From positions 6,624,001 through 6,688,000 of the forward strand of contig OZ250169.1 in NCBI GenBank assembly GCA_965237955.1: DNA of 64,000 bases, written 5' to 3'. A program made the position numbers and the translations under genes. Position 1 is the first letter of the stretch, and every line of letters begins with the position of its first letter. Positions 2,055-23,777 of the stretch are shown piece after piece. The notes beneath the pieces were generated by a model, which worked only from the letters and a program-made list of their open reading frames with translations, was not told the origin of the DNA and ran no database searches. This stretch comes from Candidatus Marinacidobacterales bacterium. GTDB taxonomy: Bacteria > Acidobacteriota > Vicinamibacteria > Marinacidobacterales > SMYC01.

Positions 2055-3446
2055 CTACGTCGAGCTCCACGCGGTGAGACCGCGCTCTTCGTCGGTTCCC
2101 GGTATCGTATTGTCCAGGACGAGCGCGATGAAAGCGCCCACTGCCATCCCGGTACGACCGAGCGTATTGCTGACGTCCGCGAGGAGACTCCAAGCTGGTC
2201 CGAAGTCGACAGGGTTCGCGGTGAAGTATTGCGGAACCGAAAGCCCCATGAAGAACGCGAACCCGAGGATGAACAAATTGCGCGCTGAGTTCAGGTTCAC
2301 GAACTGCAAGTTCGACAGTCCGACCGCGGCGATCATCCCGAACATCGCGCAGTACATGCCACCCACGATAGGTTGAGGGATCGTCGTAAAGAGCGCGCCG
2401 AACTTTCCGAACGCGCCGAGAACCAACATGAACGCGGCGCCGGTCTGAACGACGCGGCGGCTTCCGACCCGGGTCAGACCGATCGCTCCGATGTTCTCGC
2501 TGTAGGATGTCGTCCCGTTTCCGGTCCCGAAAATTCCGGCGATGAGACAGCCAACGCCCTCCATGCCGATGCCCCGGTTCACGACCGAAGAGCTCGGTAC
2601 CGGTGCGCCCGCAAGCCGAGCGCACGCGTAGTAGTCTCCGACCGACTCCACCATCGAGGCGAGGTAGCCCGCGAGCATGCCGACGGTCGCGGCCAACCCG
2701 AAAACGGGCAGGCCCCATTGAAACGGATACGGGACTCGGACCCAGGGAGCTGCGCGCACGTTGTCCATCGAAACGTACGCTGGGTGACCTTCCGCAAACA
2801 CGCCGAGCGCCGTGAGAAGGCTCGCCACACCCCAGGACAACAAGATCGCGAGCATGATGGGAAACAGCTCGAACGCCCGATGAGTGCGCCGCATGTATTG
2901 GCTGAACAAGATGATGAGGACGATCGTCAGCCCGCCGATCCCCCAATGCTTGCCCGCTTCGGGCGCACCCAAGTTGAAAAGCGCCAGTCCGATGAGCGCG
3001 ATCGTCGGCGCGATCGTGATCGGCCCGACAAAGCGAAGAAGCTTTCCCATCAGCCCGGAGTAACCGATCAGCATTTCGAAAAACGATCCCGCGATGACGG
3101 CGCCTTGAATGTGTTGAAGCCGCACTTCGAAACCCGCTTCACGCACGGCAGCCATCCCTATTATCGAAATCGCAGGAGCGAGGAACGAGAATGTTCCTCC
3201 TTGGATGAGCGGCAGACGGTTGCCCCACGTCGTTTGTAAAAGCGTCGTGATGCCGCTGACGAAGAACATCGTCCCGATGAGCCAGCCGAGCTCGATGGGC
3301 TTATCTGCAATCCCGAGAGGCTCGCTCAAGATCAACGGGATCGCGACCGTCGAGCCGAACATCGTGAGGTATTGCTGGAAGCCGAGTGGGATGACTTCGA
3401 CCCAGGGCGGGTTGTCGTCGATGGAATAGATGAGCTTTGGCTTCAA
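2055..3446 (-). CDS. NCS2 (nucleobase:cation symporter-2, uracil/xanthine permease family) transporter
   Basis: GFQQYLTMFG, NRLPLIQGGTFSF, ESVGD, TTSYSENIGAIGLTRVGSR signature; multiple TM segments. Confidence 0.95.
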   Translation of the reverse strand: MKPKLIYSIDDNPPWVEVIPLGFQQYLTMFGSTVAIPLILSEPLGIADKPIELGWLIGTMFFVSGITTLLQTTWGNRLPLIQGGTFSFLAPAISIIGMAAVREAGFEVRLQHIQGAVIAGSFFEMLIGYSGLMGKLLRFVGPITIAPTIALIGLALFNLGAPEAGKHWGIGGLTIVLIILFSQYMRRTHRAFELFPIMLAILLSWGVASLLTALGVFAEGHPAYVSMDNVRAAPWVRVPYPFQWGLPVFGLAATVGMLAGYLASMVESVGDYYACARLAGAPVPSSSVVNRGIGMEGVGCLIAGIFGTGNGTTSYSENIGAIGLTRVGSRRVVQTGAAFMLVLGAFGKFGALFTTIPQPIVGGMYCAMFGMIAAVGLSNLQFVNLNSARNLFILGFAFFMGLSVPQYFTANPVDFGPAWSLLADVSNTLGRTGMAVGAFIALVLDNTIPGTDEERGLTAWSST

Positions 3447-3455
3447 GAAGCGTTA

Positions 3456-3484
3456 AAGGTAGGCGCGCGCCTCGACGATGTCAA
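3456..3484 (-). promoter_or_regulatory. Sigma70-type promoter for the NCS2 gene
   Basis: TTGACA-17nt-TACCTT on the minus strand, ending 9 nt before the TTG start. Confidence 0.6.
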
Positions 3485-3579
3485 TTCGAACGTGCGCAGC
3501 AAGAAAAGTGAGAGAATGTGCGGCATGGAATTCGCGACTTGTCTAGCCTCTGCGGTGAGTCTTTCTTTTCCAGCTCAGC

Positions 3580-4452
3580 TCAGGGCAGCAGCCCCGTCAT
3601 GTCGCCGTAGGTCTCCGGCCGGCGGTAGCGGTAGAACTGCCACACCCGGCGGACCTCTTCGATCATGTCGAGGTCCATCTCCGCCGTCACGAGCTCGTCT
3701 TGATCTTCACTGCCTTCCGCAAGAAACTGCCCACGCGGGTCGACGAAGTAGCTGTGTCCGTAGAATTTTCCGATGTTCCACGGCGCTTCCTCTCCGACGC
3801 GGTTGAGACAACCCATGAAGTACCCGTTGGCAACGGCATGCGCGGGCTGCTCGAGCTTCCAAAGATACTGCGATAACACGGCCACCGTGGCCGATGGATT
3901 GAACACGATCTCCGCACCAGCCAGCCCGAGCAAACGCGCTCCCTCGGGAAAATGGCGGTCGTAACATATATAAAGGCCGACTTTCGCGTGCGCCGTATCG
4001 AATACCGGATAACCGAGATTGCCGGGCTTGAAGAAATACTTCTCCCAGAACCCGGACGTGTGCGGCAAGTGGTTCTTCCGGTACTTGCCCAGATACTTCC
4101 CATCCGCATCGATGATCGCCGCCGAGTTGTAGTAAACACCCGCCTGCTCCCGCTCATAGATCGGAATGATGAGAACCATTTCGTACTTCTGCGCGTAAGG
4201 CGTGAGCGCTTCCGTCGTCGGTCCCGGGATCGGCTCGGCAGCGTCGTACCAGCGCGCGTCCTGAGACGGGCAAAAGTAGGGCCCGTTGAAAATTTCCTGG
4301 AGGCACAGAATCTGAACGCCCTCCTGCCCCGCTTCCTCAACGAGCGGGATGTGCTTTTCGAGGGCCGCGTCCTGGATTTCCTTCACGGGACGAGTTTCGT
4401 CGTTGATGGGATTTTCACATTGGATGAGACCGCCTTTCACGAGCCTGGCCAT
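3580..4452 (-). CDS. Nitrilase-superfamily carbon-nitrogen hydrolase, beta-ureidopropionase-like
   Basis: LQEIFNGPYFC, YRKNHLP, FWEKYFFKPGN, ICYDRHFPE (E-K-C triad); SD AAGGAG before the ATG at 4452. Confidence 0.9.
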   Translation of the reverse strand: MARLVKGGLIQCENPINDETRPVKEIQDAALEKHIPLVEEAGQEGVQILCLQEIFNGPYFCPSQDARWYDAAEPIPGPTTEALTPYAQKYEMVLIIPIYEREQAGVYYNSAAIIDADGKYLGKYRKNHLPHTSGFWEKYFFKPGNLGYPVFDTAHAKVGLYICYDRHFPEGARLLGLAGAEIVFNPSATVAVLSQYLWKLEQPAHAVANGYFMGCLNRVGEEAPWNIGKFYGHSYFVDPRGQFLAEGSEDQDELVTAEMDLDMIEEVRRVWQFYRYRRPETYGDMTGLLP

Positions 4453-4469
4453 CGCTGAACTCCTTTTCA

Positions 4470-4716: not shown

Positions 4717-4722
4717 CCGCGG

Positions 4723-4751
4723 AGTTTAGTACATCACGGACGTTCTGGCAA
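4723..4751 (-). promoter_or_regulatory. Sigma70-type promoter giving a ~265-nt leader
   Basis: TTGCCA-17nt-TAAACT on the minus strand. Confidence 0.6.
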
Positions 4752-4797
4752 CGACATCAATTTCCCGGTAGTGCTGTAGTTTGATCAAACTGATGCA

Positions 4798-4990: not shown

Positions 4991-6259
4991 ATGATTGGCG
5001 ACAACGCTCGGCGGAGCCTAAGTATCGATGGGGCGCGGCTCATGCGCCGCCTCAACGAGCTCAACCAGCGGGGGGCACGGGATGACGGCGGCTGCAACCG
5101 CCTCGCGTTCACCGACGCCGACAAAGAAGGTCGTGACCTCGTCACCGGATGGATGCGCGAGCTCGGGATGAGCGTTACCGTCGACGCTATCGGTAACGCC
5201 GTCGCGGCGCGCCCGGGTGCGGAAGACGGCCCGCCGGTCATGTGCGGCTCGCACATCGACACCGTACGCACAGGTGGTCGCTACGACGGAAACCTCGGTG
5301 TGCTCGCCGGACTCGAGATCATCGAAACGCTGAACGACGCGGGGCTCACCACGCGCCGTCCCCTCGCGGTCGCGTTCTTCTCTAACGAGGAAGGTGCACG
5401 CATCGCGCCTGACATGATGGGTAGCCTGGTATACGTCGGTGGGCTCCCGCTCGCGGAAGCACACGCCGCGGTGAGTATCGATGGCAAGACCGTCGCCGAC
5501 GAGCTCGAGCGGATCGGCTATCGCGGCGACGCGCCTGTTCCCGGCGCGACACCGTACGCGTTCGTCGAGCTTCACATCGAGCAAGGTCCGATCCTGGAGG
5601 CGGAGGGCATCGGCCTCGGCGCGGTCACCGGTGTCCAGGGGATCTCGTGGACCGAAGTCACGGTGGAAGGCCAAGCGAACCACGCGGGCACGACACCGAT
5701 GTCGTACCGCCACGACGCCGGTTACGTCGCCGCGGAAACAGCAGCGTTCGTCCGGCGTTTGGTGAAAGAGATGGGAGGCGCGCAAGTCGGCACCGTCGGC
5801 GCGATCGACCTCGACCCGAACCTCGTGAATGTCGTCGCCCGGAAAGCCGTGCTCACCGTCGATCTACGCAACACCGACGAGAGTCTGCTGCAACAAGCCG
5901 AGGCGCGACTCAACCAGCACCTCGACACTATCGCCGAAGCCGAAGGCGTCGAGACCACGACGCGCAAGCTCGCACGGTTCGAGCCCGTCGATTTCGACCG
6001 GCGCGTTATCGAGCTCGTCGAAGATACGGCCAAAGCCCTCGGGAACACAGTCCGCCAACTACCCGCGGGAGCGGGACACGACGCCCAGATGCTCGCGCGC
6101 GTTTGCCCGACGGGCATGGTGTTCACGCCGAGCGTCAAAGGCATCAGCCACAATCCGAAAGAGCACACCGACCCGAAAGACCTCGAAGCCGGCGCCAACG
6201 TCTTGCTTCAACTGCTTCTCACCCTGTCCGAGTCCGACGACATCCCGGTGCGTTTATGA
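4991..6259 (+). CDS. Zn-dependent M20 amidohydrolase (N-carbamoyl-L-amino-acid hydrolase/allantoate amidohydrolase family)
   Basis: GSHIDTV, GGRYDGNLGV, NEEG, ELHIEQGP, ANHAGTTPM, GAGHDAQ, SHNPKE. Confidence 0.93.
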   Translation: MIGDNARRSLSIDGARLMRRLNELNQRGARDDGGCNRLAFTDADKEGRDLVTGWMRELGMSVTVDAIGNAVAARPGAEDGPPVMCGSHIDTVRTGGRYDGNLGVLAGLEIIETLNDAGLTTRRPLAVAFFSNEEGARIAPDMMGSLVYVGGLPLAEAHAAVSIDGKTVADELERIGYRGDAPVPGATPYAFVELHIEQGPILEAEGIGLGAVTGVQGISWTEVTVEGQANHAGTTPMSYRHDAGYVAAETAAFVRRLVKEMGGAQVGTVGAIDLDPNLVNVVARKAVLTVDLRNTDESLLQQAEARLNQHLDTIAEAEGVETTTRKLARFEPVDFDRRVIELVEDTAKALGNTVRQLPAGAGHDAQMLARVCPTGMVFTPSVKGISHNPKEHTDPKDLEAGANVLLQLLLTLSESDDIPVRL

Positions 6260-7188
6260 GCCGCGAGGTCGTCATCGCAGCGGCCCAGCTCGGTCCCATC
6301 TCGAGAAGCGACAGCCGCGAGGCCGTCGTCGAACGGCTCCTCGCCCTCTTGCATCAAGCCCACGAGCAAGGCGCCGAGCTCGTGGTGTACCCGGAGCTCG
6401 CACTCACAACGTTTTTCCCGCGTTGGAGCATCGACGACCAGGACGAGATCGACAGATTTTTCGAGCGCGAGATGCCGAACGCAGCAACGCAGCCGTTGTT
6501 CGACGAAGCGAATAAACTCGGCGTCGGTTTCAGTGTCGGTTATGCCGAGCTCACACCGGACGGGCACCACTACAACACGCAGATTCTTGTCGAGCGCAAC
6601 GGCACCGTTGTCGGAAAGTTTCGCAAAGTCCACCTCCCCGGCCACGAAGAGAACGAAACGTGGCGCAAGTTCCAACATCTGGAGCGGCGTTACTTCGAGC
6701 CGGGCCCCGAAGGCTTTCAAGTGTGGCGCGCGTTCGGTGGCATAATAGGCATGGCCATTTGCAACGATCGGCGTTGGCCGGAAACGTATCGCGTGATGGG
6801 TCTTCAAGGCGCGGAGCTCATTCTCATCGGCTACAACACGCCAATTCACTACGCGCCTGATCCCAGCCAGGACGTTCTCCGAAGTTTTCACAACCATCTC
6901 GTCATGCAGGCGGGCGCGTATCAGAACGGCACGTGGGTCGTCGGTGTCGCCAAGGGCGGCTGTGAAGAAGGCGTCGATTCGCTTACAGAGAGTGCGATCA
7001 TCGCCCCTTCGGGGCAGATCGTCGCGCGATGCGACTCGGAGAGTGACGAGGTCGCCGTCGCGCGATGCGATCTCGATATGTGTAAGAACTACAAAGGCAC
7101 GCTGTTCGACTTCGAGCGCTACCGCATGCCCGAGCACTACAAGCGCATCACCGAGCAACGCGGCGCTATTGAACCGGCCCCGGACTGA
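6256..7188 (+). CDS. N-carbamoyl-D-amino-acid hydrolase (D-carbamoylase)
   Basis: PELALTTFFPRW, RKVHLPGH, FQHLERRYF, ICNDRRWPE, GYNTP, AGAYQNG; ATGA overlap with the upstream stop. Confidence 0.93.
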   Translation: MSREVVIAAAQLGPISRSDSREAVVERLLALLHQAHEQGAELVVYPELALTTFFPRWSIDDQDEIDRFFEREMPNAATQPLFDEANKLGVGFSVGYAELTPDGHHYNTQILVERNGTVVGKFRKVHLPGHEENETWRKFQHLERRYFEPGPEGFQVWRAFGGIIGMAICNDRRWPETYRVMGLQGAELILIGYNTPIHYAPDPSQDVLRSFHNHLVMQAGAYQNGTWVVGVAKGGCEEGVDSLTESAIIAPSGQIVARCDSESDEVAVARCDLDMCKNYKGTLFDFERYRMPEHYKRITEQRGAIEPAPD

Positions 7189-7202: not shown

Positions 7203-9752
7203 ATGACGTTTACGCTGAACGGAAACTCGACAGACATAAAGGGTCGCCACCCCCATCTTTTGTCCGCTCTGCGCGACGAGCTCGGAGTGATTTCGCCCAA
7301 AGATGGTTGCGCGCCTTCGGGTCAGTGTGGCTGCTGCGTCGTTCTCATCGACGGGCGTGCGGTCACGAGCTGCACGCAGTCGGTGGACTCGATCGAAGGG
7401 AAAGACATCGTCACCCTCGAAGGCGTGGACGACGCCGAAGTCGATCGCTACGCGCGCGCGTTTGCATCCACGGGCGCTCTCCAGTGCGGATTCTGTACCC
7501 CAGGCATCGTCATGCGCACCAAAGCGCTGCTGGACTCCAAAGGAAAAGACTTGAAGCGCGACGAGGCGGCGCGTTTCCTAGGGACGCATCTTTGTCGCTG
7601 CACGGGTTACGTCAAAATTCTCGACGCCATCGAAGCACTCGCTCGAGGGGAAAACGTCGACGTCGAGCTCCCGCGAGGCGTGGGGACGTGCGGCATCAAG
7701 TACGAAGGCTGCGATCTCGCCGTCGGGCGACGGCCCTACATCGACGATATGCGAGAGCCCGGGATGCTCCATGCCGCGTTGAAGCTCACCGATCACGCGC
7801 GCGCCGAGATCATCGCCATCAATCCATCGCACGCGCTCGAAGAGCCCGGCGTCGAGGCGGTGTACACCGCGGCCGACGTGCCGGGCGAGCTCCGTATCGG
7901 TCTCATCCACAAAGACTGGCCGGTGTTTATTCCCGAAGGCAGCATCACGTCCTATCTCGGCGACGTGCTCGCGATCGTCGTCGCGCGCGACCGTGAGACC
8001 GCCCGCCGCGCGGCAGCACTCGTCGACGTCACCTACAAGGAGCTTCGCCCGTTAACCGACCCGGTGGCGGCGATCGATGACGAAGACAACGCCGTCTGGA
8101 CTCTGGACGGCAACGTGTTGTCGCGTTCGAGCTACCTTCGGGGTAACGTCGACGACGCGCTCGCGAGCTCGGCCCACAAGGTGCACGAGGTCTTCCAGAC
8201 GCAACGCGTCGAGCACGCGTACCTCGAGCCCGAATCTACGCTCGCGGTCTCTCAGCCCGGAGGAACCCTCCAAGTGTATTCGGGCGGCCAAGGCATCTGG
8301 GACGATCGCAATCAGATCGCGTCCGTGCTCGGTGTTCCTCAAAACGCGGTGCGCGTCGAGCTCGTCTCGAACGGTGGTGCTTTCGGCGGCAAGGAAGACA
8401 TGTCGAACCAAGCGCAAACCGCGCTTGCGGCCTATCTTCTGCAAAAGCCGGTGAAGTGTACCCTCAGTCGTGAAGAGTCGCTCCTCATGCACCCGAAACG
8501 ACACCCGATCCGGATGGAGTATTGGGCGGGCTGCGACGCGGACGGCAAACTCACCGCGATCAAAGCCCGCATGATCGGCGACTCCGACCCGTACGCGTCG
8601 GTCGGGATGAAAGTGCTGGAGCGAGCCGCGGGTCACGCGACCGGTCCGTACCAAGTTCCTTCCGTCGACATCGAGTCGATCGCGGTGCGCACCAACAATC
8701 CCGTATGTGGCGCCTTCCTCGGCTTCGGTGCGAACCAGGCGCACTTCGCCGTCGACGGCGTTTTGGATCGCCTCGCGGAGAAAGTCGGCATCAGCGGTTG
8801 GGAGCTGCGCTCGCGCAATATCATCGAGCCGGGAAAGCTCTGGGGACCGGGCCAAATCATGGATGACGGTTGCCTCGGGGCACGCGTCTGTCTGGACTCC
8901 GTGAAACGTGCTTACGACCAGGCGGTCGCGGACGGAAAAGCTGTCGGCGTCTCGTTGGGACTCAAGAACTCCGGTCTCGGAAACGGGTTCAAGGAGATCG
9001 CCAAAGCCGTCGTGCGCTTCGAGGACGACGGTATCGTCGAAATCCGCCACTGCTGGACCGAGATGGGGCAAGGCGTGCATACGGTCGCGCTTCAAGTAGC
9101 GGTGGAAGAGCTCGGCGTTTCACCGGAGAAGGTCCGCGTCATCGTCGACACGTCGCGCGAGCTCGGCGCCGGGCAAACGACAGGCTCGCGCGGAACGTTG
9201 ATGACTGCGGGCTCGGTGAAGGATGCGTGCCGCGTCGCGCTCGAAGACGGCAAGAGGACCGGCGTCGATTACCACGGCGAGTACCGCGTGGATTGGACCA
9301 ACTCGCTTTCCGACGGTGTGGACAATCCCATCATCCACTCGACGTTCGGCTATGCCGCGCAGCTCGTCATCGCGGATCGCGAGAGCGGCAAGATCGAGCG
9401 CGTGGTCGCCGTACACGACGTTGGCCGCGCCGTGAATCCGATCCTCTGTGAAGGCCAAATCGAAGGCTCAGTACACATGGGGCTCGGCTTCGCGCTCAGC
9501 GAAGACTTCCCCGCCGACGAGAACGGGCGTCCGACCAACATGACCATCAAGAGCCTCGGTATCCTGCGGGCGGGAGACATGCCGGAGGTCGACGTGAAGC
9601 TCGTCGAAAGCCCGCAGCCGAACTCGCCTTACGGCATCAAAGGCGTCGGCGAAATCGGCCTGGTGCCGACCGCGGGCGCGGTGGCTGCGGCACTTCACGA
9701 CGCCGACGGGAAGTGGCGCACGACGCTTCCCATGGCACAGCGCGGCAAGTGA
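7203..9752 (+). CDS. Xanthine dehydrogenase-family Mo hydroxylase with fused 2x[2Fe-2S] domain (selenium-dependent xanthine dehydrogenase-like architecture)
   Basis: KDGCAPSGQCGCC, QCGFCTPG, LCRCTGY, GGAFGGKED, EMGQG, TTGSR, KGVGE; no FAD domain. Confidence 0.9.
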   Translation: MTFTLNGNSTDIKGRHPHLLSALRDELGVISPKDGCAPSGQCGCCVVLIDGRAVTSCTQSVDSIEGKDIVTLEGVDDAEVDRYARAFASTGALQCGFCTPGIVMRTKALLDSKGKDLKRDEAARFLGTHLCRCTGYVKILDAIEALARGENVDVELPRGVGTCGIKYEGCDLAVGRRPYIDDMREPGMLHAALKLTDHARAEIIAINPSHALEEPGVEAVYTAADVPGELRIGLIHKDWPVFIPEGSITSYLGDVLAIVVARDRETARRAAALVDVTYKELRPLTDPVAAIDDEDNAVWTLDGNVLSRSSYLRGNVDDALASSAHKVHEVFQTQRVEHAYLEPESTLAVSQPGGTLQVYSGGQGIWDDRNQIASVLGVPQNAVRVELVSNGGAFGGKEDMSNQAQTALAAYLLQKPVKCTLSREESLLMHPKRHPIRMEYWAGCDADGKLTAIKARMIGDSDPYASVGMKVLERAAGHATGPYQVPSVDIESIAVRTNNPVCGAFLGFGANQAHFAVDGVLDRLAEKVGISGWELRSRNIIEPGKLWGPGQIMDDGCLGARVCLDSVKRAYDQAVADGKAVGVSLGLKNSGLGNGFKEIAKAVVRFEDDGIVEIRHCWTEMGQGVHTVALQVAVEELGVSPEKVRVIVDTSRELGAGQTTGSRGTLMTAGSVKDACRVALEDGKRTGVDYHGEYRVDWTNSLSDGVDNPIIHSTFGYAAQLVIADRESGKIERVVAVHDVGRAVNPILCEGQIEGSVHMGLGFALSEDFPADENGRPTNMTIKSLGILRAGDMPEVDVKLVESPQPNSPYGIKGVGEIGLVPTAGAVAAALHDADGKWRTTLPMAQRGK

Positions 9753-10762
9753 ATACCACTCCGGGACTCGTCTGCGCCCACCATCATCTTTATTCCGCCC
9801 TCGCGCGCGGGATGCCGCCGCCACCCCGAACCCCGACGACGTTTCAGGAGATCCTCGAGCTCATCTGGTGGCGTCTCGATAAGGCGCTCGATCTCGAGAT
9901 GATCGAGTGGTCGGCCAAGCTCGGCGCGCTCGAAGCGCTCGAGCGCGGGACGACCGCCATCATCGAGCACCACGCGTCACCGAGCGCCATCGAAGGATCC
10001 CTGTCTGTCATTGCAGATGCGTGCGCTGAGGTCGGCGTTCGCCTCTCGACCTGTTACGAAGTCACTGACCGAAACGGTCGCGACGAAGCCAAAGCGGGTC
10101 TTGCCGAGAACGAGCGCTACCTCAAGGCCGGAGGACGCGGCTATGTGGGCGCCCATGCGTGCTTCACGCTCTCGGACGAAACACTCGACGCCGTGTGTGC
10201 GCTCGCGGAGGAGCTCGACGTCGGCGTCCACATCCACGTGGCCGAAGGACCCGAAGACATCGACGCAGGCAAGCGACTCGAAGAACGTGCGCGCGACAAC
10301 TGGATCCTCGTCCATGCCGTCCACCTCGATCGCGAGCTTCCCGGAACGATCGCACACAATCCCCTGTCCAACATGAACAACGCCGTCGGCTACGCCGCGC
10401 CAGCCAAGCGTCCGAACCCAATCGTTCTCGGCACCGACGGCATCGGCGGCGACATGATCGAAGCGTTCCGCATGGCGTACCTGCGCGCCCGCGAGACCGA
10501 CGTTACCTTTTCGCCCGAGACCGCGTGGAGCTGGCTCGAAGCCAACTGGGAGCTCTTTCCCGAGGCCAAAGACGATCGCGTCACCTGGTCGTACGACCCC
10601 ATGGAACCGTGGCATCTAGCGTTCACCCCTGGAGTCCGGCCACTCGAAATCGTCGTCGACGGAGAGAAGGTCGTGGCGGACGGCAAGCCGACGCGCGTCG
10701 ATCCCATCGAAGTTAGAGCCAAAGCGCGGGAGCAAGCCGAGCGCCTGTTCGAGAAACTCTGA
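9749..10762 (+). CDS. SsnA-like metal-dependent amidohydrolase
   Basis: PGLVCAHHHLYSALARG, WWRLDKAL, HHASP, GAHACFT, HIHVAE, HNPLSNMNNAVG, LGTDG; GTGA overlap with xdh. Confidence 0.88.
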   Translation: MNTTPGLVCAHHHLYSALARGMPPPPRTPTTFQEILELIWWRLDKALDLEMIEWSAKLGALEALERGTTAIIEHHASPSAIEGSLSVIADACAEVGVRLSTCYEVTDRNGRDEAKAGLAENERYLKAGGRGYVGAHACFTLSDETLDAVCALAEELDVGVHIHVAEGPEDIDAGKRLEERARDNWILVHAVHLDRELPGTIAHNPLSNMNNAVGYAAPAKRPNPIVLGTDGIGGDMIEAFRMAYLRARETDVTFSPETAWSWLEANWELFPEAKDDRVTWSYDPMEPWHLAFTPGVRPLEIVVDGEKVVADGKPTRVDPIEVRAKAREQAERLFEKL

Positions 10763-11845
10763 TGACGACAATCATTCGCAACGAGTCGACGGTTGCGCTG
10801 CCGGACGGATTCAAAACGTCGCCGAAGCCCCTCGAGCTCCATGAAAAACTCCCGCACTACGCTCCGACCCCACTCATCGATGCACCGCCGATTGCGGAGA
10901 GGCTCAGTCTCTCTCGAGTACTCGTCAAAGACGAATCGCAACGCTTCGGCATGCCCTCGTTCAAGCTTCTCGGCGCGTCGTGGGCGACGTTCCGCGCGCT
11001 CGTCGACTACATCGGACGCGATCCCGCACCCTGGGTCGATATCGACGGGTTGCGCGAACAGGTCGCGCCACTGCGGCCGTTCGCACTCGCGGCAGCCACC
11101 GACGGAAACCACGGCCGCGCGGTTGCGCGCATGGCGAAGCTTCTAGACTTCGAGGCGAAGATCTTCGTTCCCGCGGGAACAACCCAAGCCCGCATCGATA
11201 GGATCGAGAGCGAAGGCGCGAGTTGCACCGTCGTCGACGGCGACTATGATGACACCGTGGCCCGCTCCGCCGAAGAAGCCAGCCATCGCTGTCTCGTCAT
11301 CGACGACACCTCGTGGCCCGGCTACGAAGACATCCCCCGCTGGGTCGCCGAAGGCTACGCGACCATCTTTTATGAGATCGACGAAACCCCCGACGTCGTC
11401 TTCGTTCCTCTCGGTGTCGGCGCACTTGGCGCCGCCGCCACGGACTTCTACAAACGCGCCGACGATACGACCATCGTCGGCGTCGAGCCCAAGACGTGCG
11501 CGTCGGTCCTCGCATCAATCCAAAAAGGCGAGCTCGTGACCGTGCCCGGACCTCACCCATCAATGATGGCCGGCCTCAACTGCGGCACACCGTCCGCGGT
11601 CGCGTTCCCGACGCTAAAAGCGGGCCTCGACTGGTGCGTCTCCGTGGAAGACAGCTACGCCGAACAAGCCATGCGCACCCTAGCGGTGTGCGGCATCATC
11701 TCGGGCGAAACCGGCGCGGCCGCGCTCGCGGGCCTCGTCGAACCCGCTAGAGCTGGGCAAAGAATCGACTGTCCTAGTGATTTCTACCGAAGGCGCCACC
11801 GACCCGGCCGCGTACGAACGAATCGTAGGCCGTAAGCCGACTTGA
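10762..11845 (+). pseudogene. Diaminopropionate ammonia-lyase-like PLP enzyme, frameshifted near its 3' end
   Basis: VKDESQRFGMPSFK, ATDGNHGRAVA, MAGLNCG; the family-like tail ELGKESTVLVISTEGATDPAAYERIVG* is in another frame after ~11745. Confidence 0.8.
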
Positions 11846-11864
11846 AGCTCAACCTCTCGCCCGT

Positions 11865-11891
11865 CCCGCCTTCGCTACTAGCTTCGGCGGG
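11865..11891. repeat. Intergenic palindrome (REP-like or terminator)
   Basis: CCCGCC-TTCGCTACTAGCTTC-GGCGGG just after the operon end. Confidence 0.45.
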
Positions 11892-14203: not shown

Positions 14204-14550
14204 ATGTCTATCATCGACAGCCATTGTCCCATCGGAGCCGGCATCCGCTGGGCTACACCGACTTCTGGTACGATGCCGTCCCGGCCGCGCCGCAATCGGA
14301 GAACATCTATCTCGAGACCTCGCTCATCGACATCATGAATATTCAAAACGCGATCGAGAAAGTTGGCGCGGAGCGGATCCTCTTCGGCTCCGACTGCCCG
14401 GAAAGCGATCTCTCGCTCGAGCTCGAGAAGATCGCCATGGTCGACATGAACGACGAGGCGAGGCGCCGCACCGCCAATCACTTGAAGCTTCCGGTGCTGT
14501 TCCATGACGGGACGTTGCACGAGATCGTTTCGGAGATCGATTCACGATGA
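14204..14550 (+). pseudogene. Collapsed amidohydrolase_2-family gene
   Basis: MSIIDSHC(P)IGAGIR start, then in another frame LGYTDFWYDA...NIYLETS...GAERILFGSDCP; most of the barrel is missing. Confidence 0.65.
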
Positions 14551-15917
14551 AGCTAGGACCCACTCTCTCGGAAATGCGCGAGCCGTGGACCATCGATCCC
14601 TCGACGCGCAAGCAGGCTCTCGACGCCAAAGCGTCGGACCCGCTCGACGCCGTCAACCTCTACAACATCACCTGGTACGACGCGGACGACGAGATCCAGC
14701 ACTTCGTGATCCCGCCCGCGGTGACCGGCGTCGAGGCACCCATCGTCGTCATCTACAGCCGCGATTTTCCGACGGGAAGCCACAAAGTCGGCGCCGCGTA
14801 CTCCGTTCTCGCGGAGCTCATCGTCTCCGGTGAAGTCGATCCCGAAAAGCACCGTCTCGTGTGGCCGAGCACCGGCAACTACGGAGTTGGGGGCGCCTGG
14901 GTCGGTGGCCGCGTTGGCTGCAAGAGCATCGTGGTGCTTCCGGAAGGCATGAGCCGCGAGCGTTTCGAGCTCATCGAGAGCTTCGGCGCCGAAATCATCA
15001 AGACGCCGGGAAGCGAGTCGAACGTCAAGGAGATCTACGACAAGACGTGGGAGCTTCGACAGGACCCCGAGATACGCATCCTGAATCAATTCGAGGTCAT
15101 GGGGAACTACCGCTTTCACTACGAGGTGACGGGTAACTCAGTGGTCGAGCTCGCCCAGCGGCTCGGAGCCATTGGGGTCGGGAGCGGCTCGGCGGCCGCG
15201 TTCGTCTCGTCGATGGGAAGCGCCGGTACGATCGCGGCCGGCGATCGTCTGAAACAGGTTTGGCCCGATCACAAAATCGTGGGGCTCGAGCCTATCCAAT
15301 GTCCTACGCTCTACAACAACGGCTACGGCGCTCACGAGATCCAGGGCATCGGCGACAAGCATGTGACTTGGATCCATCACGTCAACAACATGGATGCGAT
15401 GATGTGCATCGACGATCTGTCCTCGGTGCGCGGGCTGCAGCTCTTTACCGACGACACCGGGCGACGGGTGCTCGAGGAGCGGTTCGCGGTGTCATCGAGC
15501 GACGTCGCCATGCTGGCGTCGATCTTCGGGATCAGCGGTGTATGCAATTTGCTCGGTGCAATCAAAACCGCGAAATACTACGGCTTCGGCAAGGACGATC
15601 TCGTGGTGACGGTTTGCACCGATGATATCGGCCGTTACGGAAGCGTCATGGAGTGGCTGACAAAGCAAGAAGGCCCGATGGACGAAGCCGTGGCGACGGC
15701 TCGCATGACCGGCATCTTCCACGGTGCGGGACTTGATTGGATACAAGAAGGAACGGTCCATAACCGGAATACGTGGCACAACCTCAAGTACTACACCTGG
15801 GTCGAACAGCAAGGAAAGAGCGTCGACGAGCTCGATGCCCAGCGCGAGCCTGGCTGGTGGCAAGCACACCAGAGCCGCATCCCGGACGTCAACGAAAAGA
15901 TTCGTGCTTCCCGCTGA
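14547..15917 (+). CDS. PLP-dependent fold-type II enzyme (cysteine synthase/beta-family)
   Basis: FPTGSHKVGAAY, WPSTGNYG, GMSRERF, GSAGT, HEIQGIGDKH. Confidence 0.88.
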   Translation: MKLGPTLSEMREPWTIDPSTRKQALDAKASDPLDAVNLYNITWYDADDEIQHFVIPPAVTGVEAPIVVIYSRDFPTGSHKVGAAYSVLAELIVSGEVDPEKHRLVWPSTGNYGVGGAWVGGRVGCKSIVVLPEGMSRERFELIESFGAEIIKTPGSESNVKEIYDKTWELRQDPEIRILNQFEVMGNYRFHYEVTGNSVVELAQRLGAIGVGSGSAAAFVSSMGSAGTIAAGDRLKQVWPDHKIVGLEPIQCPTLYNNGYGAHEIQGIGDKHVTWIHHVNNMDAMMCIDDLSSVRGLQLFTDDTGRRVLEERFAVSSSDVAMLASIFGISGVCNLLGAIKTAKYYGFGKDDLVVTVCTDDIGRYGSVMEWLTKQEGPMDEAVATARMTGIFHGAGLDWIQEGTVHNRNTWHNLKYYTWVEQQGKSVDELDAQREPGWWQAHQSRIPDVNEKIRASR

Positions 15918-16699: not shown

Positions 16700-18010
16700 C
16701 TAGCTGAAGAGCCCTGCCAGCTCAACCTCTAGCGCCGCCTCGGCCTCTTGTTGAGTCTCTCCTATCGCGATCACGTCTAGCTTTCCTGATTCCTGCAAAG
16801 GGCCGACGTTGTAGAGAATGAACCGTCCTTTGCCACTCGCGGGATGGTAGAGCTCACTTCTTAGCCGACTCTGCACTTCCTCGAAGGACGTGCCAACGAG
16901 ATGCTCGGATACATAGTCTTGAGCGCGGTACGGCGGCCGGTTACTCGGGACAAGACGGTCGACGAGAGACATCGGGATGCTCGTGCCGCCCCATCGACCA
17001 TTGCACTCGGTAAACCGCGCGCGCTCATCGTCGAGCACGATGAAATCAAACGAGCATCTTCCGACGTAGCCGAGCTCTTGCAGAGCCGTGGCCACTCGAG
17101 TTGACGCCGTCGCCAGCTCGACAGCAATCGGATGCGTGAGCGGACGACTGCCGACGAAAATCTTCTCGGGTCCTTTCAGGATCTGCTCGTAGACGCCTTC
17201 GACGATCGGCCGCCCCTGTCCGCGCGGTGGAATCCACGTTTGTGTGGACGGAGAAAGATCGGTTTCTTCCCACGCGACAGCGAGCACATCTTCCGCGCCG
17301 TCCCACTCGGTACGCTCGAGGAACGCGCACACGACGTCTTCGACGTCTTGTTCGAGGAGCTCGGCCGAATCGAAAACTTCATTCCCCATGGCCGAAGCAC
17401 AGCGGGTTCGCTTGAGACCGACGCGGGTACACGTCTTGGCGATCTCGCGAAGATGGTGCGCGATCACGCGAGGCTCACGTGCAATCTCGGTACGGACGAG
17501 CCACTCCTTCCCAAGTGTTTGCTCGACTAGCTCGCTGAAGGATTTTTTATCATTCGCGATCCACGTGACCGGAGGCGGCGGCCCGATGACTTTGACGGGC
17601 GCGTTCGCATCGGCTTCCACGCGCGCCGCCAGCTCCCATACCGGCTCGATGCTCATGTAGGGATGGATCAACAAGCCTCGCGCGGCGCGGGCGCGCTCGA
17701 CAATCTGCGCGAGCGCGGTGCCGCAGCCGCAAGCCTTCGCGACCGCGAGAGGTGACGTGACGATCTCCGCAATCACCGGCTCGGGCGAGCCCATGCGCAA
17801 AGCGTCGCGACAATACTCTTCATAGCCTTCGACGGGAGGGGTTACCGCGGCATAAAGGTCGCCGACGCCGGCGCGCACGCGTGCGCGGTGCTGGTACTCC
17901 TCGATCCCGATGATTTTGCCGAGAAACGGAATTTCAGAGACGTCGTCGAGGTAGAGCGTGGGGTAGCCGCTCTCGCCCCTCCAAAGGTGCTCTTCGTAGT
18001 TCGATCCCAT
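16700..18010 (-). CDS. ATP-grasp-like ligase (PGM1/pre-ATP-grasp peptide ligase-related)
   Basis: [46 protein letters not shown] (E-x-N-x-R). Confidence 0.7.
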
Positions 18011-18029: not shown

Positions 18030-18993
18030 ATGAGCCGTGTCGCACTCTATCTCCAGGACGCGCATCCTCTCGAGGATTGCATTCGCTTCGCGAGCTACGC
18101 CGAGGAAAAAGGATTCGAAGCCGTGTGGCAGGCGGAGAGCCGCCTCGTCCGGGACGCTATCGTTCCCATGGCCGCCTACGCGGCTGTCACGTCACGTATC
18201 AAAATCGGCTCGGGTGTCATCAATAACTGGACGCGCAATATCGGGCTTCTGGCCGCGACGTATTTGACCCTCGACGACCTCGCCCCCGACCGCATCTTGT
18301 GCGGCATCGGTGCGTGGTGGGATCCGCTCGCAAAAAACGTCGGCATCGACCGCCGGAAGCCATTGCTCGCAATGAAGGAGACCATCGAAGTCTTCCGCAA
18401 ACTGCTGCGGCTCGAGAACGTGACGTTCCACGGCGAGTTTCACCACGTGGACGGCATCGAGCTCGACGTCGTCCATGGCCGGCGCGAGCCTAGAAACGTT
18501 CCTGTGTTGATCGGTGCAACCGGAAACAAGATGCTCGAGCTCACCGGCGAGATCGCCGATGGCTGCTTACTGAACTACTGCGTCCCGCCGTCCTACAACG
18601 ACCGCGCGATGGAGCTCCTGACGGCGGGCGCCAAGAAAGCGGGCCGCAGCATCGATGACATCGACCGCCCGCAGCTCATCGTCTGTTCCGTCGACCACGA
18701 TCGCGCCCGCGCCATCGAAGGCGCCAAGGAGCTGATCACACAATACCTGGCGCAGCAACCTCACATCGCCAAAGCGTCCGGCGTCGACGACCAAAGAACA
18801 AATCCACGAAGCCATGCAATACGTCCCCGACGAGCTGATCCTGAACATCACCGCCACCGGAACCCCGGAAGAAGCGAAAGCCCGGGTCGAAGACTACAAG
18901 GCCAGAGGCTGCACCTGCCCTGTGCTTTACCCGTTGGGCGACGCAAAGCTGATGATCGACACCTTCGCCAACCGAGGCACAGCCGATGGCTGA
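18030..18993 (+). pseudogene. LLM-class (luciferase-like, possibly F420-dependent) oxidoreductase with a frameshifting deletion at ~18790
   Basis: [25 protein letters not shown]; the C-terminus [16 protein letters not shown]...[11 protein letters not shown] is in a shifted frame ending at TGA 18991-18993. Confidence 0.8.
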
Positions 18994-20601: not shown

Positions 20602-21996
20602 ATGGAGATCGACAAAGTCATCAAAGGTGGAACCATCGTCACCGCCGACGACATGTATCCGGCGGACATCGGTATTACGAACGGACGCATTGTCGCGATT
20701 GGCATGGAGCTCGAAGGTGCAGAGACGATCGACGCCGCGAGCAAGTACGTCATGCCCGGCGGGATCGACGTCCATACGCATCTCGACATGCCGTTTGGAG
20801 GCACGACCACGGCCGACGATTGGGAGAGCGGGACGATTGCTGCTGCCTGCGGCGGCACCACGACGCTCATCGATTTCGCGATCCAGGATTTCGGAAACAC
20901 GCTCCACGCCGGTGTCGACGCCTGGCACAAGCGCGCCGAAGACCGTGCCGCGATCGACTACGCGTTCCACATTATCGTGCGCGAGCTCCGCGAGTCGCAC
21001 CTGAAGGAAATGGACGAGCTCGTCGACGACGGCATCACCAGCTTCAAGCTCTTCATGGCCTACCCCGGCGTCTTCATGGTCGACGACGCCACGATTTTCA
21101 AAGCGATGCTGCGCACCAAAGACAACGGCGGGCTCATCTGCATGCACGCGGAAAACGGCAGCGTCATCGACGCGCTCGTCGAGCGCGCGCTCAAAGAGGG
21201 CCACACCGAACCCAAGTGGCATGCGCTGACCCGCCCGATGAGCGCCGAGGCCGAAGCGACACACCGAACGATCGCTCTCGCCGAGATGGCCGGTGTGCCC
21301 GCCTACATCGTTCACTTGTCGGCAGGAGACGCGATGGAAGAAGTGCGGCGAGCGCGCGAGCGAGGCCTTCCGGTGTTCGCCGAGACGTGCCCGCAGTACC
21401 TGTTCCTCTCCTACGAAGATTACGAGAAGCCGGGATTCGAGGGCGCGAAATACGTGATGTCCCCTCCCCTTCGCCCCAAAGGCAACGAAGAACGGCTGTG
21501 GAACGGCCTGCAAACCGACGCGCTCCAAGCGGTGTCCACCGACCATTGCAGCTTCTGTATGAAGGAACAGAAAGAGCTCGGCAAGAACGATTTCACGAAG
21601 ATCCCGAATGGTGCGCCCGGGATCGAGAACCGCTTGATGCTACTCTACGACGGCGGTGTGAACGGCGGCCGCATCAGCCCCAACCGTTTCGTCGAGCTCG
21701 TCTCGACGCGGCCCGCCAAGATCTTCGGACTCTATCCGCGCAAAGGATCGATCACCATCGGAGCCGACGCCGATCTTCTCCTCTGGGACCCCAAGCGAAA
21801 GTGGACCATCAGCGCCGATACCCATCGTATGAAGGTCGACTACAGCGCTTACGAAGGCCGCGAAGTCACCGGTATCCCCGACAAGGTGCTGCTCCGAGGC
21901 GATATCATCGTCGACGATCAAAAATACGTCGGCAACATCAAGCAGGGCTCGTTCGTGAAGCGCGAGCCCGGCTCAGCACGAACGCCCGAAGGGTAG
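20602..21996 (+). CDS. hydA: Dihydropyrimidinase/D-hydantoinase
   Basis: PGGIDVHTHLDMPF, SFKLFMAY, MHAENG, ETCPQYL, MSPPLR, STDHC, IPNGAPG. Confidence 0.93.
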   Translation: MEIDKVIKGGTIVTADDMYPADIGITNGRIVAIGMELEGAETIDAASKYVMPGGIDVHTHLDMPFGGTTTADDWESGTIAAACGGTTTLIDFAIQDFGNTLHAGVDAWHKRAEDRAAIDYAFHIIVRELRESHLKEMDELVDDGITSFKLFMAYPGVFMVDDATIFKAMLRTKDNGGLICMHAENGSVIDALVERALKEGHTEPKWHALTRPMSAEAEATHRTIALAEMAGVPAYIVHLSAGDAMEEVRRARERGLPVFAETCPQYLFLSYEDYEKPGFEGAKYVMSPPLRPKGNEERLWNGLQTDALQAVSTDHCSFCMKEQKELGKNDFTKIPNGAPGIENRLMLLYDGGVNGGRISPNRFVELVSTRPAKIFGLYPRKGSITIGADADLLLWDPKRKWTISADTHRMKVDYSAYEGREVTGIPDKVLLRGDIIVDDQKYVGNIKQGSFVKREPGSARTPEG

Positions 21997-22066
21997 ACCA
22001 TCAGCCGTAATAGCCGAACGCCACCCAGCCAGACTCGATTTTAACGCCCGAAAGCCTCGCGACGGT

Positions 22067-22109
22067 TTGACACATATCTATCGACACATGATTCTCGACA
22101 GAGTATACT
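22067..22109 (+). promoter_or_regulatory. TA promoter with three direct repeats (putative operator)
   Basis: T(T/C)GACA at 22067, 22081 and 22095 (14-bp period); TCGACA-17-TATACT, then ATG 7 nt later. Confidence 0.6.
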
Positions 22110-22116
22110 TCACACA

Positions 22117-22384
22117 ATGGCAAAAAACGAAGAAGGTGCAGGTGACCCTTGATGAGGCGCGATACAAAGAGCTCGCCGACATCGCCCAAAGAGAAGGAAG
22201 GAAGCTGGCAAGCATTGTAAGGGAATCGATCGAACAATACGCTCTCGCCCCCGAGGCGGATCGCAACAAGCGCGAAGCGTTAGAGGAACTTTTTGCGCTA
22301 GAGCCCACTCCTCGGCCCAAGAACTACAAAGACTGGAAGCGCGAATACGGTGGCCGTAAAACGAAGAGCGAAGAAAAAAACTGA
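22117..22384 (+). CDS. RHH/CopG-type antitoxin (apparent +1 frameshift in an A6 run just after the ATG)
   Basis: KTKKVQVTLDEARYKELADIAQREGRKLASIVRESIEQY; ATG 22117 is out of frame by one A. Alternative in-frame GTG at 22136. Confidence 0.7.
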
Positions 22385-22805
22385 CAAAGACGCGTACTTC
22401 TTGGACGCAAGCGTACTCATGTACGCGGCCGGCGGACCGCATCCGCTACGAGAGCTGTGCCGAACGACGCTCGAGCTCGCCGTCACGCGCCGTGTTCGAT
22501 TAGTAAGCAGCTCCGAAGTGCTGCAGGAGATTCTCCACCGATATTTCTCGATTGGACGGCCGGACGCAGCGCGTACCGTCTATCGAGCCGCCACGACATT
22601 GTGCGCGGACATTCTTGCGATTGATATCCAACACACCAATCGAGCCCTCGAGCTACTTCTCGAATCCCCTCAGCTCTCCCCCCGAGACGCAGTTCACGTA
22701 GCGACGATGGAATCACATGGATTGCGACGAATACTCACGACCGATCGAGATTTCGATTCGATCGAAAGCGTCGATCGTATCGAGCCAGCCTATTTTGTTT
22801 CGTAG
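22350..22805 (+). CDS. vapC: VapC/PIN-domain toxin
   Basis: FLDASVLMYAAG, SSEVLQEILHRY, RDAVHVATM, TTDRDFD. Confidence 0.88.
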   Translation: MAVKRRAKKKTDKDAYFLDASVLMYAAGGPHPLRELCRTTLELAVTRRVRLVSSSEVLQEILHRYFSIGRPDAARTVYRAATTLCADILAIDIQHTNRALELLLESPQLSPRDAVHVATMESHGLRRILTTDRDFDSIESVDRIEPAYFVS

Positions 22806-22826
22806 CGTGCTGCCCGGACGGAGCTC

Positions 22827-23777
22827 CTAAATGTCCAGCGCCCTACCTCGTCCCTGCTCGCGGCCCGCTTCGTACACGTGCTTGGCGGCGGCGAGGTCTT
22901 CGATGGCTAGGCCCTGGGACTCGAAGAGCGTAATGTCGTCGTCGTTCTGACGCGCTGTCGTGTTGCCGGCCACCACGTCGGCGAACTCGTGGACGTCGTC
23001 CCACGAGATGCCGCCCGATTCCACCACGTCGGCGAGATCGCCGCATTCGATCTTCGCTTGCTCGACAGAGTCAGTAGCGATGAAGCTCGAGCTCGTCACC
23101 GCGTCGGCATCGATCTCGAGGCGGCGGAGATTGTTCGATCCCGCGGCGTTTATGTGCTGGCCCGGACGGAGCCACTCCCCCCTCAACACGGGCTCACGGG
23201 AATTGGTGACGGTGACAATGATATCGACATCGGCCGTGACCGCTTCGGGGCTGTCGCACGGTGTCACCGGAAGCCCGAGCGTCTCGGACATTTCCTCGCA
23301 GAACTTCTCCCGCCGCTCTTGGTTGCGCCCGTACGCCACCACCGATTCAATCGATCTCACGACAACGATGGCCTCGAGCTGGGAGCGCGCCTGCCAACCA
23401 GTGCCGTAGATGCCGACTCGGGATGCCGCCTCGCGGGCCAGGTAGCGCGTCGCAACGCCGCTCGCGGCGCCGGTCCGGATCTGGCCCAGCCGATCGGCCT
23501 CCATCAACGAGACCAGCTCACCGCTCGCGGCATCGAACATCAGGAAGTGAAACCGCGCTCCCGACGGGCCCGTCGTGTAGGCCTTGAGCCCGACATAGCC
23601 GAGCGCACTGCTGCCCGCGGGCAGCACATGCAGCATGAGCTTGTCGGCCCGAACCCGTTGCCGGGGTTTGTTCATCGCGTCGCCACTCGCGAGGAGGCGG
23701 AAGGCTTCGTCGACGCACGCGAGAGCGTCTTTCATCGTCAACAGCTCGCCGACATCGTCTTCGCTAAAGAACTGCAC
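22827..23777 (-). CDS. Ornithine cyclodeaminase/mu-crystallin family protein
   Basis: GLKAY, LGQIRTGAASGVA, GTGWQA, HINAAGSN, LFESQGLAIED. Confidence 0.9.
   Translation of the reverse strand: MQFFSEDDVGELLTMKDALACVDEAFRLLASGDAMNKPRQRVRADKLMLHVLPAGSSALGYVGLKAYTTGPSGARFHFLMFDAASGELVSLMEADRLGQIRTGAASGVATRYLAREAASRVGIYGTGWQARSQLEAIVVVRSIESVVAYGRNQERREKFCEEMSETLGLPVTPCDSPEAVTADVDIIVTVTNSREPVLRGEWLRPGQHINAAGSNNLRRLEIDADAVTSSSFIATDSVEQAKIECGDLADVVESGGISWDDVHEFADVVAGNTTARQNDDDITLFESQGLAIEDLAAAKHVYEAGREQGRGRALDI

Follow-up and report, generated by a model that had tools for sequence, protein, structure and literature searches.

Two reports (Li et al., 2025, PMC12507026; Liu et al., 2025, 10.1101/2025.04.24.650524) describe the reductive urate cluster of Escherichia coli and Clostridium sporogenes, which comprises xdhD-ygfM or xdhAC, ygfK, ssnA, hyuA, ygeW, yqeA, ygeY and ygeX. 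Variants are described in the former: in C. difficile, UacX stands in for YgfK and a hydrolytic, D-aminoacylase-like enzyme, UacY, for YgeW/YqeA, and in Chloroflexota a luciferase-family F420 reductase was proposed in place of YgfK (Li et al., 2025, Fig. 3c). In the latter, the pathway intermediate was assigned as (R) and the clostridial dehydrogenase DOPDH was stated to work only anaerobically (Liu et al., 2025); in a third paper, the order of ureido cleavage and the stereochemistry of the intermediate were listed as open (PMC12990295). Here, a gene cluster was analyzed in a 64-kb stretch of DNA (the window) in a single-contig, 8.1-Mb genome of Candidatus Marinacidobacterales (97.96% complete, 6.2% contaminated). 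An earlier reading of the letters alone (the sequence-only reading) had proposed a hydrolytic variant of reductive urate/purine breakdown at positions 2055 to 23777, with carbamoylases in place of YgeW/YgeY and a luciferase-like monooxygenase (LLM) family enzyme in place of YgfK. We consider it quite likely that the cluster encodes a hydrolytic, nitrogen-scavenging form of the reductive urate (2,8-dioxopurine) pathway, probably of an F420 type.

Like the E. coli and C. sporogenes cluster, the window has an Fe-S-fused molybdenum (Mo) hydroxylase without a flavin adenine dinucleotide (FAD) domain (as XdhAC), an SsnA-like protein, a hydantoinase and a diaminopropionate lyase, and selD is present. 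Unlike that cluster, it has no YgfK, YgeW, YgeY or carbamate kinase, and an LLM enzyme, a D-carbamoylase and an M20-family hydrolase are found instead; its SsnA is shorter, no ATP would be gained from carbamoyl phosphate, and the host genome holds a homologue of heme-copper oxidase subunit I. Because the YgfK, YgeW and YgeY features fail, the cluster was read as a variant and not as a canonical member. The C. difficile system is alike in that a D-specific enzyme would hydrolyze a ureido group irreversibly without carbamate kinase; there, however, YgeY is retained and UacY is homologous to D-aminoacylases, whereas both steps would be replaced in the window, by a nitrilase-fold D-carbamoylase and the M20 hydrolase. 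No UacY-type D-aminoacylase was recognized in the cluster (no genome-wide search for UacY was made). As in the Chloroflexota case, the LLM gene replaces ygfK/uacX and is linked to ssnA, but the family of the window is one with close homologues named Vicinamibacteria and lacks cofC, cofD and cofG; in the loci compared below, the LLM type was mostly from Acidimicrobiia, and Chloroflexia loci had YgfK.

The genes for the M20 hydrolase, the D-carbamoylase, the Mo hydroxylase, the SsnA-like protein and the diaminopropionate ammonia-lyase-like protein (DpaL) form an operon (Table 1). All genes named in the sequence-only reading were found where it had placed them, and the translational coupling that it claimed agrees with the overlaps at three of four junctions (ATGA, GTGA and TGATG, the M20/D-carbamoylase overlap being ATGA); between the D-carbamoylase and hydroxylase genes there is instead a 14-nt gap. 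The five-gene order was complete in 9 of 11 same-family loci, the other two being cut by contig ends, so the arrangement is not due to chance. The short SsnA was present in 11 of 18 same-family genomes.

The M20 hydrolase scored 466 bits on NF006769 (cut-off 452) and 400 bits on TIGR01879 (cut-off 204); its best PDB matches were hydantoinase/carbamoylase-family amidases, followed by L-carbamoylase and N-carbamoyl-beta-alanine amidohydrolase. The D-carbamoylase matched solved D-carbamoylases with an E-value of 1.6e-124, and the Cys-Asn-Asp-Arg-Arg motif and the Glu-Lys-Cys triad of the nitrilase-fold D-carbamoylases were aligned and unchanged, the Glu, Lys, Cys and Arg-Arg residues being the catalytic motifs of these enzymes. 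D-carbamoylases act on N-carbamoyl-D-alpha-amino acids. The fused Fe-S/Mo architecture of the hydroxylase fits the DOPDH kind, with a TIGR03311 score of 812.6 bits (cut-off 830.45) and 810 in an intact relative. SsnA was the best family of the SsnA-like protein (266.8 bits vs. a cut-off of 444), which was 32% identical to E. coli SsnA and lacked the first ~55 model positions. Shortness of this kind is usual in a large family (7834 proteins at E ≤ 1e-40), in which the close homologues, among the best 120 of the 7834, were named Vicinamibacteria and Acidimicrobiia, pointing to an acidobacterial host. The window copy of DpaL, which is frameshifted, scored 272.5 bits on NF006058 against a cut-off of 276, and 9 of 11 relatives exceeded that cut-off.

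Downstream of the operon, the hydantoinase scored 609 bits on TIGR02033 (cut-off 393) and was 40% identical to E. coli HyuA, so a HyuA-type feature is present. The order LLM, aldehyde dehydrogenase (ALDH), hydantoinase was kept in relatives within the host family, the ALDH gene staying between the other two. A pyridoxal phosphate (PLP) enzyme, whose PDB matches were cysteine synthases, is encoded directly 5' of the LLM gene in six same-family relatives. Elsewhere, a second hydantoinase gene with an internal stop lies beside an insertion sequence (G000:C1:6786237-6787709), and a second hydantoinase adjoins a second D-carbamoylase (52-56% identity) in three relatives and in genome G109.

The genome was searched with E. 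coli proteins as queries and with family models. YgfK gave no tblastn match in the genome, and TIGR03315 was found in none of 12 family genomes; carbamate kinase (YqeA) had no match in the 8.1 Mb; YgeW and YgeY gave weak matches only (26% and 21-30%, respectively), and neither was found in any of the 12 family genomes. No uricase was found in the genome, and a PF01180 search returned one strong gene only, read as pyrD, and no YgfK/UacX reductase. The sequence-only reading had reported ygeW, ygfK and carbamate kinase missing from the window and had named co-regulated ygeW, ygeY and ygfK elsewhere as a ground for giving it up; these genes are absent genome-wide, ygeY included, which supports its view that carbamoyl phosphate is not conserved. 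Of the selenium genes that it proposed to look for, selD scored over the cut-off and yqeC had a 31% match, and yqeB was recovered at half length only.

A scan of GTDB by SsnA alignment gave at least 597 relatives, the best 80 of which were kept as comparison loci; for the 50 loci on the longest contigs, whole genomes were searched. Of the 80 non-family loci, 70 held a Mo hydroxylase, 43 YgfK (in some cases shortened), 28 an LLM orthologue at 60-67% identity and 23 a D-carbamoylase. The LLM orthologue and YgfK never occurred together, two LLM matches at 27-30% having been set aside as paralogues. The same pattern was seen in the 50 genomes, with the LLM orthologue in 22, a YgfK-type N-terminal domain in 27, both in none and neither in one (G069 was counted from a split gene, and matches confined to the GltD-like domain or LLM matches below 60% were not counted). 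On TIGR03315, full-length YgfK exceeded the cut-off in 20 of 68 genomes, and the window LLM was 60-67% identical to LLM proteins encoded after ssnA in Acidimicrobiia. Since YgfK and the LLM orthologue were never found in one locus, the LLM enzyme is supported as the predicted occupant of the YgfK slot. The replacement had been suggested in the sequence-only reading and already stands in print for other bacteria (Li et al., 2025). Shortened YgfK proteins (~600 aa, with the N-terminal part and a short C-terminal match) were observed in loci L003, L006, L012, L027, L074 and L148, often with a D-carbamoylase; their architecture is UacX-like. Urease was found in 4 of 68 genomes only and did not discriminate between variants.

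The best NCBIfam families of the window LLM were F420-dependent types, none over its cut-off, and all eight PDB matches were Mer or FGD. On TIGR03842 it scored 72 bits against a cut-off of 295, and a separate TIGR03842-like gene (80% identical to that of relative G017) lies elsewhere in the genome. When the F420 genes were sought, as had been proposed earlier, only an adjacent npdG-cofE pair (G000:C1:5685303-5686707) was recovered; both genes scored over their cut-offs, and the pair was kept in all family genomes checked (five of five in one tally, six of six in another). By contrast, cofD was found in none of 12 family genomes vs. 48 of 50 comparison genomes, cofG was not found in the window genome or in four relatives (0/5), and cofC was below the cut-off in four of four family genomes. 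A PF01933 match was rejected as CofD, with 25 bits only on TIGR01819, and is presumably a YvcK-like protein. F420 synthesis by cofC, cofD and cofG was thus not found in the host family (cofH was not searched), and the family is predicted to be unable to make F420 by known genes. Genomes of the family with npdG-cofE may belong to scavengers of F420; cofG, cofD and cofC occur together in G025, a genome of a sister family. The literature search returned nothing relevant on F420 uracil reductases or on cofE without cofD.

The neighborhood survey suggested in the sequence-only reading, for clusters without ygeW and ygfK that have a D-carbamoylase and an LLM enzyme, also revealed replacement patterns at the ureido-removal steps. 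In the 50 genomes, D-carbamoylase was present in 20 and a cluster carbamoyltransferase (defined as at least 67% identical to the L010 protein) in 24, with both in one and neither in seven. The M20 orthologue, present in 21 genomes, never occurred with the transferase and was found in 17 of the 20 D-carbamoylase genomes; YgeY over cut-off was found in none of the 50, and a hydantoinase match in 45. The two operon hydrolases are therefore supported as ureido-stripping enzymes by their near-complete exclusion of the transferase and by their pairing. In the transferase-type loci, an OTCase/YgeW-like and an ATCase-like protein formed a pair in 24 of 26 loci (one locus was counted twice, and the other two lay at locus edges). 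In Nocardioides, Barba et al. (PMC4016543) noted a pseudo-ATCase next to ygeW and xdh genes. Given the twin transferases, every variant would have two enzymes for ureido removal, the number needed for a diureido substrate. Loci L010, L017, L019, L021 and L221-L232 hold two carbamoyltransferases and carbamate kinase, often with a threonine-synthase-like PLP enzyme and without YgeY; such SsnA-type genomes with twin transferases are candidates for a two-ATP variant of the pathway.

A larger set of 103 D-carbamoylase loci was compiled from 23 GTDB and 80 metagenome loci, the latter being the best 80 of 520 and biased to close relatives. M20 was the partner of the D-carbamoylase in 60 of the 103; ten loci had a ureidopropionase-like nitrilase instead, one a true YgeW and one an ATCase-like transferase, and in 31 no partner was seen. 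Of the 51 metagenome loci that measured 7 kb or more, 42 contained the Mo hydroxylase and 31 ssnA. The locus with the ATCase-like transferase beside the D-carbamoylase (L012) was not used to assign slots, as its contig may end before the other transferase.

Within the operon, the D-carbamoylase would take the 2-ureido and the M20 hydrolase the 3-ureido group as candidate activities, because of the D-alpha specificity of the former and the (R) intermediate of Liu et al. The M20 enzyme is more likely a beta-ureido hydrolase than an L-alpha carbamoylase; the earlier label of L-carbamoylase is probably wrong, since the proposed intermediate is (R)/D. Which of the two corresponds to YgeW and which to YgeY depends on the disagreement between Li et al. 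and Liu et al. over the order of cleavage. A true YgeW (over the TIGR03316 cut-off) directly 5' of a D-carbamoylase on a single 2.7-kb metagenome contig (L145:1-1879) hints, weakly, at the order of Liu et al.

The sequence-only reading had counted three carbamoyl hydrolases, the third being the divergent beta-ureidopropionase. On such a version, this enzyme would cut the beta-ureido group, and M20 would act on the L-isomer or on another ureide. The gene adjoins the operon in 7 of 11 family loci, and a more distant paralogue (52-58% identical to the window protein) is paired divergently with the D-carbamoylase in the 10 nitrilase loci above, several of them in xdh/ssnA clusters and never with M20, so that cross-activity of the ureidopropionase is conceivable. 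That M20 and the nitrilase paralogue exclude each other elsewhere suggests, however, that M20 already does this job. Moreover, in the 80 non-family loci the ureidopropionase and the ALDH each occurred once and the permease not at all. The PDB best matches of the ureidopropionase include beta-ureidopropionases, and within the family its gene is followed by preT-preA (and heads that operon) in G002 and is adjoined by a TIGR03842 LLM gene in G017 and G018; in the window, no gene lies between it and the permease. Because it is joined to preT-preA or the TIGR03842 LLM gene in relatives, the divergent ureidopropionase most likely belongs, for the most part, to a neighboring pyrimidine branch. The three-hydrolase version is accordingly quite unlikely, and the hydrolases of the pathway are counted as two.

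The reductive pyrimidine pathway (PreT-PreA or a TIGR03842 LLM enzyme, dihydropyrimidinase and beta-ureidopropionase) would thus explain the ureidopropionase of the window and may share the hydantoinase. Could it explain the whole cluster, as the breakdown of pyrimidines or 5-substituted hydantoins by a hydantoinase, D- and L-carbamoylases and an F420 uracil reductase, with a coincidental likeness to purine clusters? Hydantoinase, ureidopropionase and an NCS2 permease are all present, an Asp/Glu/hydantoin racemase-family gene lies at 25457-26239 in the window, and loci with D-carbamoylase, M20 and hydantoinase are common on rhizobial plasmids. The pyrimidine pathway, however, has no ssnA, dpaL, Mo enzyme or D-carbamoylase, and the presence of the first three in one operon would be left unexplained; the window LLM belongs to another family than TIGR03842, a gene of that type being encoded separately in the genome, and the exclusion of YgfK and of the transferase pair is specific. 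We regard this explanation as very unlikely. The permease was 28% identical to UacT and XanQ, and its signature motif begins with Glu vs. Gln in both; uracil as its substrate, suggested by this Glu, was dropped, as passages of PMC5972032 did not confirm it.

The D-carbamoylase of the window belongs to the same enzyme family as those of the hydantoinase process (PDB 8I99, 1FO6, 1ERZ), with the same catalytic motifs and 53-65% identity to plasmid members. Thirteen plasmid loci, out of 50 records, were read. Unlike the window, none of them had ssnA, and three (Rhizobium, Cupriavidus) held dpaL-M20-D-carbamoylase operons. The M20 proteins in these dpaL operons were 58-62% identical to that of the window, and those of hydantoinase-type loci without dpaL 43-44%; an M20 tree was quick and unfinished, with long-branch warnings, and only identities and broad grouping were used. 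The plasmid operons would therefore tie the D-carbamoylase/M20 pair independently to the diaminopropionate skeleton. Such operons without xdh or ssnA, on plasmids and on two metagenome contigs (L207, L208, L213, L188 and L203), resemble a stand-alone lower-pathway module.

These operons, found in Proteobacteria, also raise the alternative that only the lower half of the window pathway is of the urate type, the hydrolases and DpaL scavenging open-chain ureido-diaminopropionates while the Mo enzyme, SsnA and the LLM enzyme act on another N-heterocycle, or the Mo enzyme works oxidatively. The scores of the hydroxylase and SsnA below their family cut-offs and the lack of F420 synthesis genes in the host family fit this alternative, as does the heme-copper oxidase homologue of the host, whereas clostridial DOPDH works only anaerobically. 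Against it, a true YgfK comes after this hydroxylase-ssnA pair in the 43 of 80 loci counted above, and full-length YgfK exceeded its cut-off in part of the genomes searched; this linkage ties the SsnA type to the characterized reduction of 2,8-dioxopurine. The alternative is therefore unlikely.

The step after ureido removal was compared in the same 50 genomes. The PLP enzyme was present in 46, the four genomes lacking it all had DpaL, none lacked both and eight had both. Because no genome lacks both, we infer that the PLP enzyme belongs to the pathway, as a candidate alternative lyase for the last step. Mutual exclusion of dpaL and the PLP gene, apparent in the 80 loci, was rejected on account of the eight genomes with both; the two are complementary. 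The PLP enzyme as a necessary albizziin lyase in transferase clusters without YgeY was considered as well, and this idea was weakened by the second, ATCase-like transferase there.

Gene identities, the absence of canonical genes, replacement patterns and lesions were observed directly; the substrates, the direction in which the Mo enzyme runs and the LLM cofactor are all predicted from sequence. Under the hydrolytic urate reading, the Fe-S/Mo enzyme of intact relatives, such as G015 or G017, would reduce urate to 2,8-dioxopurine, and the LLM enzyme, replacing YgfK, would reduce the ring with a deazaflavin as hydride donor. The D-carbamoylase would then strip the alpha-ureido and M20 the beta-ureido group, in either order, each to CO2 and NH3 without carbamoyl phosphate, and DpaL or the cysteine-synthase-like PLP enzyme would convert diaminopropionate to pyruvate and 2 NH3. 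A purine context was seen in related loci, with xdhABC-type genes, a gene of the 8-oxoguanine deaminase family and BMP transporters.

Several points weigh against this reading. The hydroxylase, SsnA and DpaL each score under the curated cut-off, and the yqeB match is limited to residues 1-259 of 541, the XdhC-like N-terminal half. An F420-dependent LLM enzyme would need an imported cofactor in this family, because cofD, cofG and cofC were not found. The seven of 50 genomes with neither D-carbamoylase nor transferase have no assigned enzyme of either type, the 31 of 103 D-carbamoylase loci show no partner (many of these contigs are short), and D-carbamoylases also exist without purine-ring genes, as in the plasmid loci. 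Finally, the comparison genomes are related and mostly incomplete metagenome-assembled genomes, and Fisher p-values overstate the association.

The physiological role of D-carbamoylase was called unclear in a 2026 paper (PMC13011192). The words carbamoylase and nitrilase are absent from the main text of Li et al. (the supplement lay outside this check), and carbamoylase is absent from the accessible text of Liu et al.; no literature linking D-carbamoylase to ssnA clusters was found among top-ranked results, subscription papers being outside the coverage. Of what the sequence-only reading proposed, the LLM-for-YgfK swap and a hydrolytic replacement of YgeW (UacY) were already in Li et al. (2025), and the D-carbamoylase swap was not found in print. 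As far as searched, the D-carbamoylase/M20 pair, its twin-transferase counterpart, the PLP complement to DpaL and the retention of the LLM gene without F420 synthesis genes are new. If the reading is true, D-carbamoylase, an industrial enzyme, gains a natural substrate and would be a D-alpha-specific reagent for two questions, the order of ureido cleavage and whether the intermediate is (R); a pathway of gut anaerobes would extend to environmental Acidimicrobiia and Acidobacteriota, and simple hydrolases with a possible F420 reductase would be parts for urate-degrading strains. The value is limited, as both the F420 swap and a hydrolytic form had been proposed in earlier publications, the roles are predicted and the window copy is damaged. 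A bolder combination is possible but doubtful as a whole: that (R)-2,3-diureidopropionate or a mono-ureido product is the true natural substrate of D-carbamoylases across bacteria, that reductive purine breakdown in an oxygen-respiring acidobacterial family works with imported F420, extended by CofE and recharged by NpdG, that the PLP enzyme represents an undescribed second family of diaminopropionate lyases, and that twin-carbamoyltransferase clusters capture both ureido groups as ATP.

The copy in the window carries several lesions. In dpaL, a 17-nt deletion near 11730 shifts the frame (near 11730-11750), leaving two frames; in the LLM gene, ~44 nt (~16 codons) are missing, with a frame shift near 18788 and a split alignment. 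The sequence-only reading had taken both genes as they stood without noticing the frameshifts, and it had also missed R506L in the hydroxylase, a Leu in the GAFRGFG motif where 86 of 86 homologue rows have Arg. An audit of conserved columns added G462D in the hydroxylase, and at two conserved columns the ureidopropionase carries a substitution as well. The window copy is thus damaged and, given the frameshifts in dpaL and the LLM gene, probably no longer fully functional.

Contigs of the public sequencing runs X1, X2, X3 and X5 were compared with the window. X2, a second sample from the same study, gave a contig with the window form of dpaL at 10934-11870 without any difference, while X3 had the 17 letters. 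An X1 contig covering the hydroxylase changes (8345-9877) was identical to the window; X1 is possibly the source sample. At least some of the lesions in the window are real. X3 and X5 also carry the stretch missing from the window LLM gene; among the X1 and X2 contigs displayed, none spans the site, where an assembly error is therefore possible, but the lesion is likely real. The lesions of strains X3 and X5, which are about 99% alike and come from two further studies, differ from those of the window. In both, the hydroxylase gene lacks 1310 nt and the M20 gene 1 nt, the permease has lost its start and the LLM gene holds two 1-nt insertions. Frameshifts in dpaL and the hydantoinase gene were additionally seen in X3, bringing its frame-breaking lesions to 6 of 11 cluster genes, whereas over 22827-33000 it had in-frame indels only. 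Because the cluster lesions differ between strains while X3 has only in-frame indels over that stretch, selection on the cluster appears to be relaxed in this species. In relative G018 (L083, L117), the M20 and TIGR03842 LLM genes are each split by an insert of ~1.5 kb, and the cluster may be decaying there too.

Table 1. Genes of the cluster and its flanks in the window, with predicted roles
Feature	Position	Strand	Remark
M20 hydantoinase/carbamoylase-family hydrolase	4991-6259	+	operon gene 1; putative remover of the 3 (beta) ureido group
N-carbamoyl-D-amino-acid hydrolase (D-carbamoylase)	6256-7188	+	operon gene 2; putative remover of the 2 (alpha) ureido group of the (R) intermediate
Fused 2Fe-2S/molybdopterin hydroxylase lacking an FAD domain	7203-9752	+	candidate urate to 2,8-dioxopurine dehydrogenase
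Short SsnA-like amidohydrolase, 337 aa	9749-10762	+	candidate ring opener
Diaminopropionate ammonia-lyase-like (DpaL) gene, frameshifted	10762-11845	+	operon gene 5
PLP fold-type II enzyme, cysteine-synthase-like	14547-15917	+	candidate alternative diaminopropionate or albizziin lyase; Pfam PALP
LLM (Mer-like) oxidoreductase, frameshifted	18030-18993	+	candidate 2,8-dioxopurine reductase
Aldehyde dehydrogenase (ALDH)	20510-19023	-	PF00171; neighbor at family level, no shown purine role
D-hydantoinase/dihydropyrimidinase	20602-21996	+	candidate for the HyuA step, possibly common to pyrimidine breakdown
Beta-ureidopropionase-like nitrilase	4470-3580	-	divergent from operon; most likely pyrimidine branch
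NCS2 nucleobase permease	3446-2055	-	PF00860; divergent from operon

The end of the cluster at 23777, as drawn in the sequence-only reading, takes in an ornithine-cyclodeaminase-family gene for which there is no evidence of a role. Between the hydantoinase gene and this gene lie an antitoxin-like open reading frame and a PIN-domain gene (22067-22805, plus strand). A BrnT-like toxin and a CopG-like antitoxin share one frame at 12027-12575 on the minus strand, where X3 and X5 lack one base at 12303. At 14224-14550 on the plus strand, 5' of the PLP gene, there is a remnant of an Amidohydro_2 gene, with matching pieces over a longer stretch in G006. A protein with weak PreATP-grasp and PGM1_C matches is encoded between the PLP and LLM genes (16700-18010, minus strand), and a gene of this type holds the same place in four relatives; a second copy (62% identity) lies with a PLP-gene fragment at G000:C1:7861066-7862606, amid insertion sequences.

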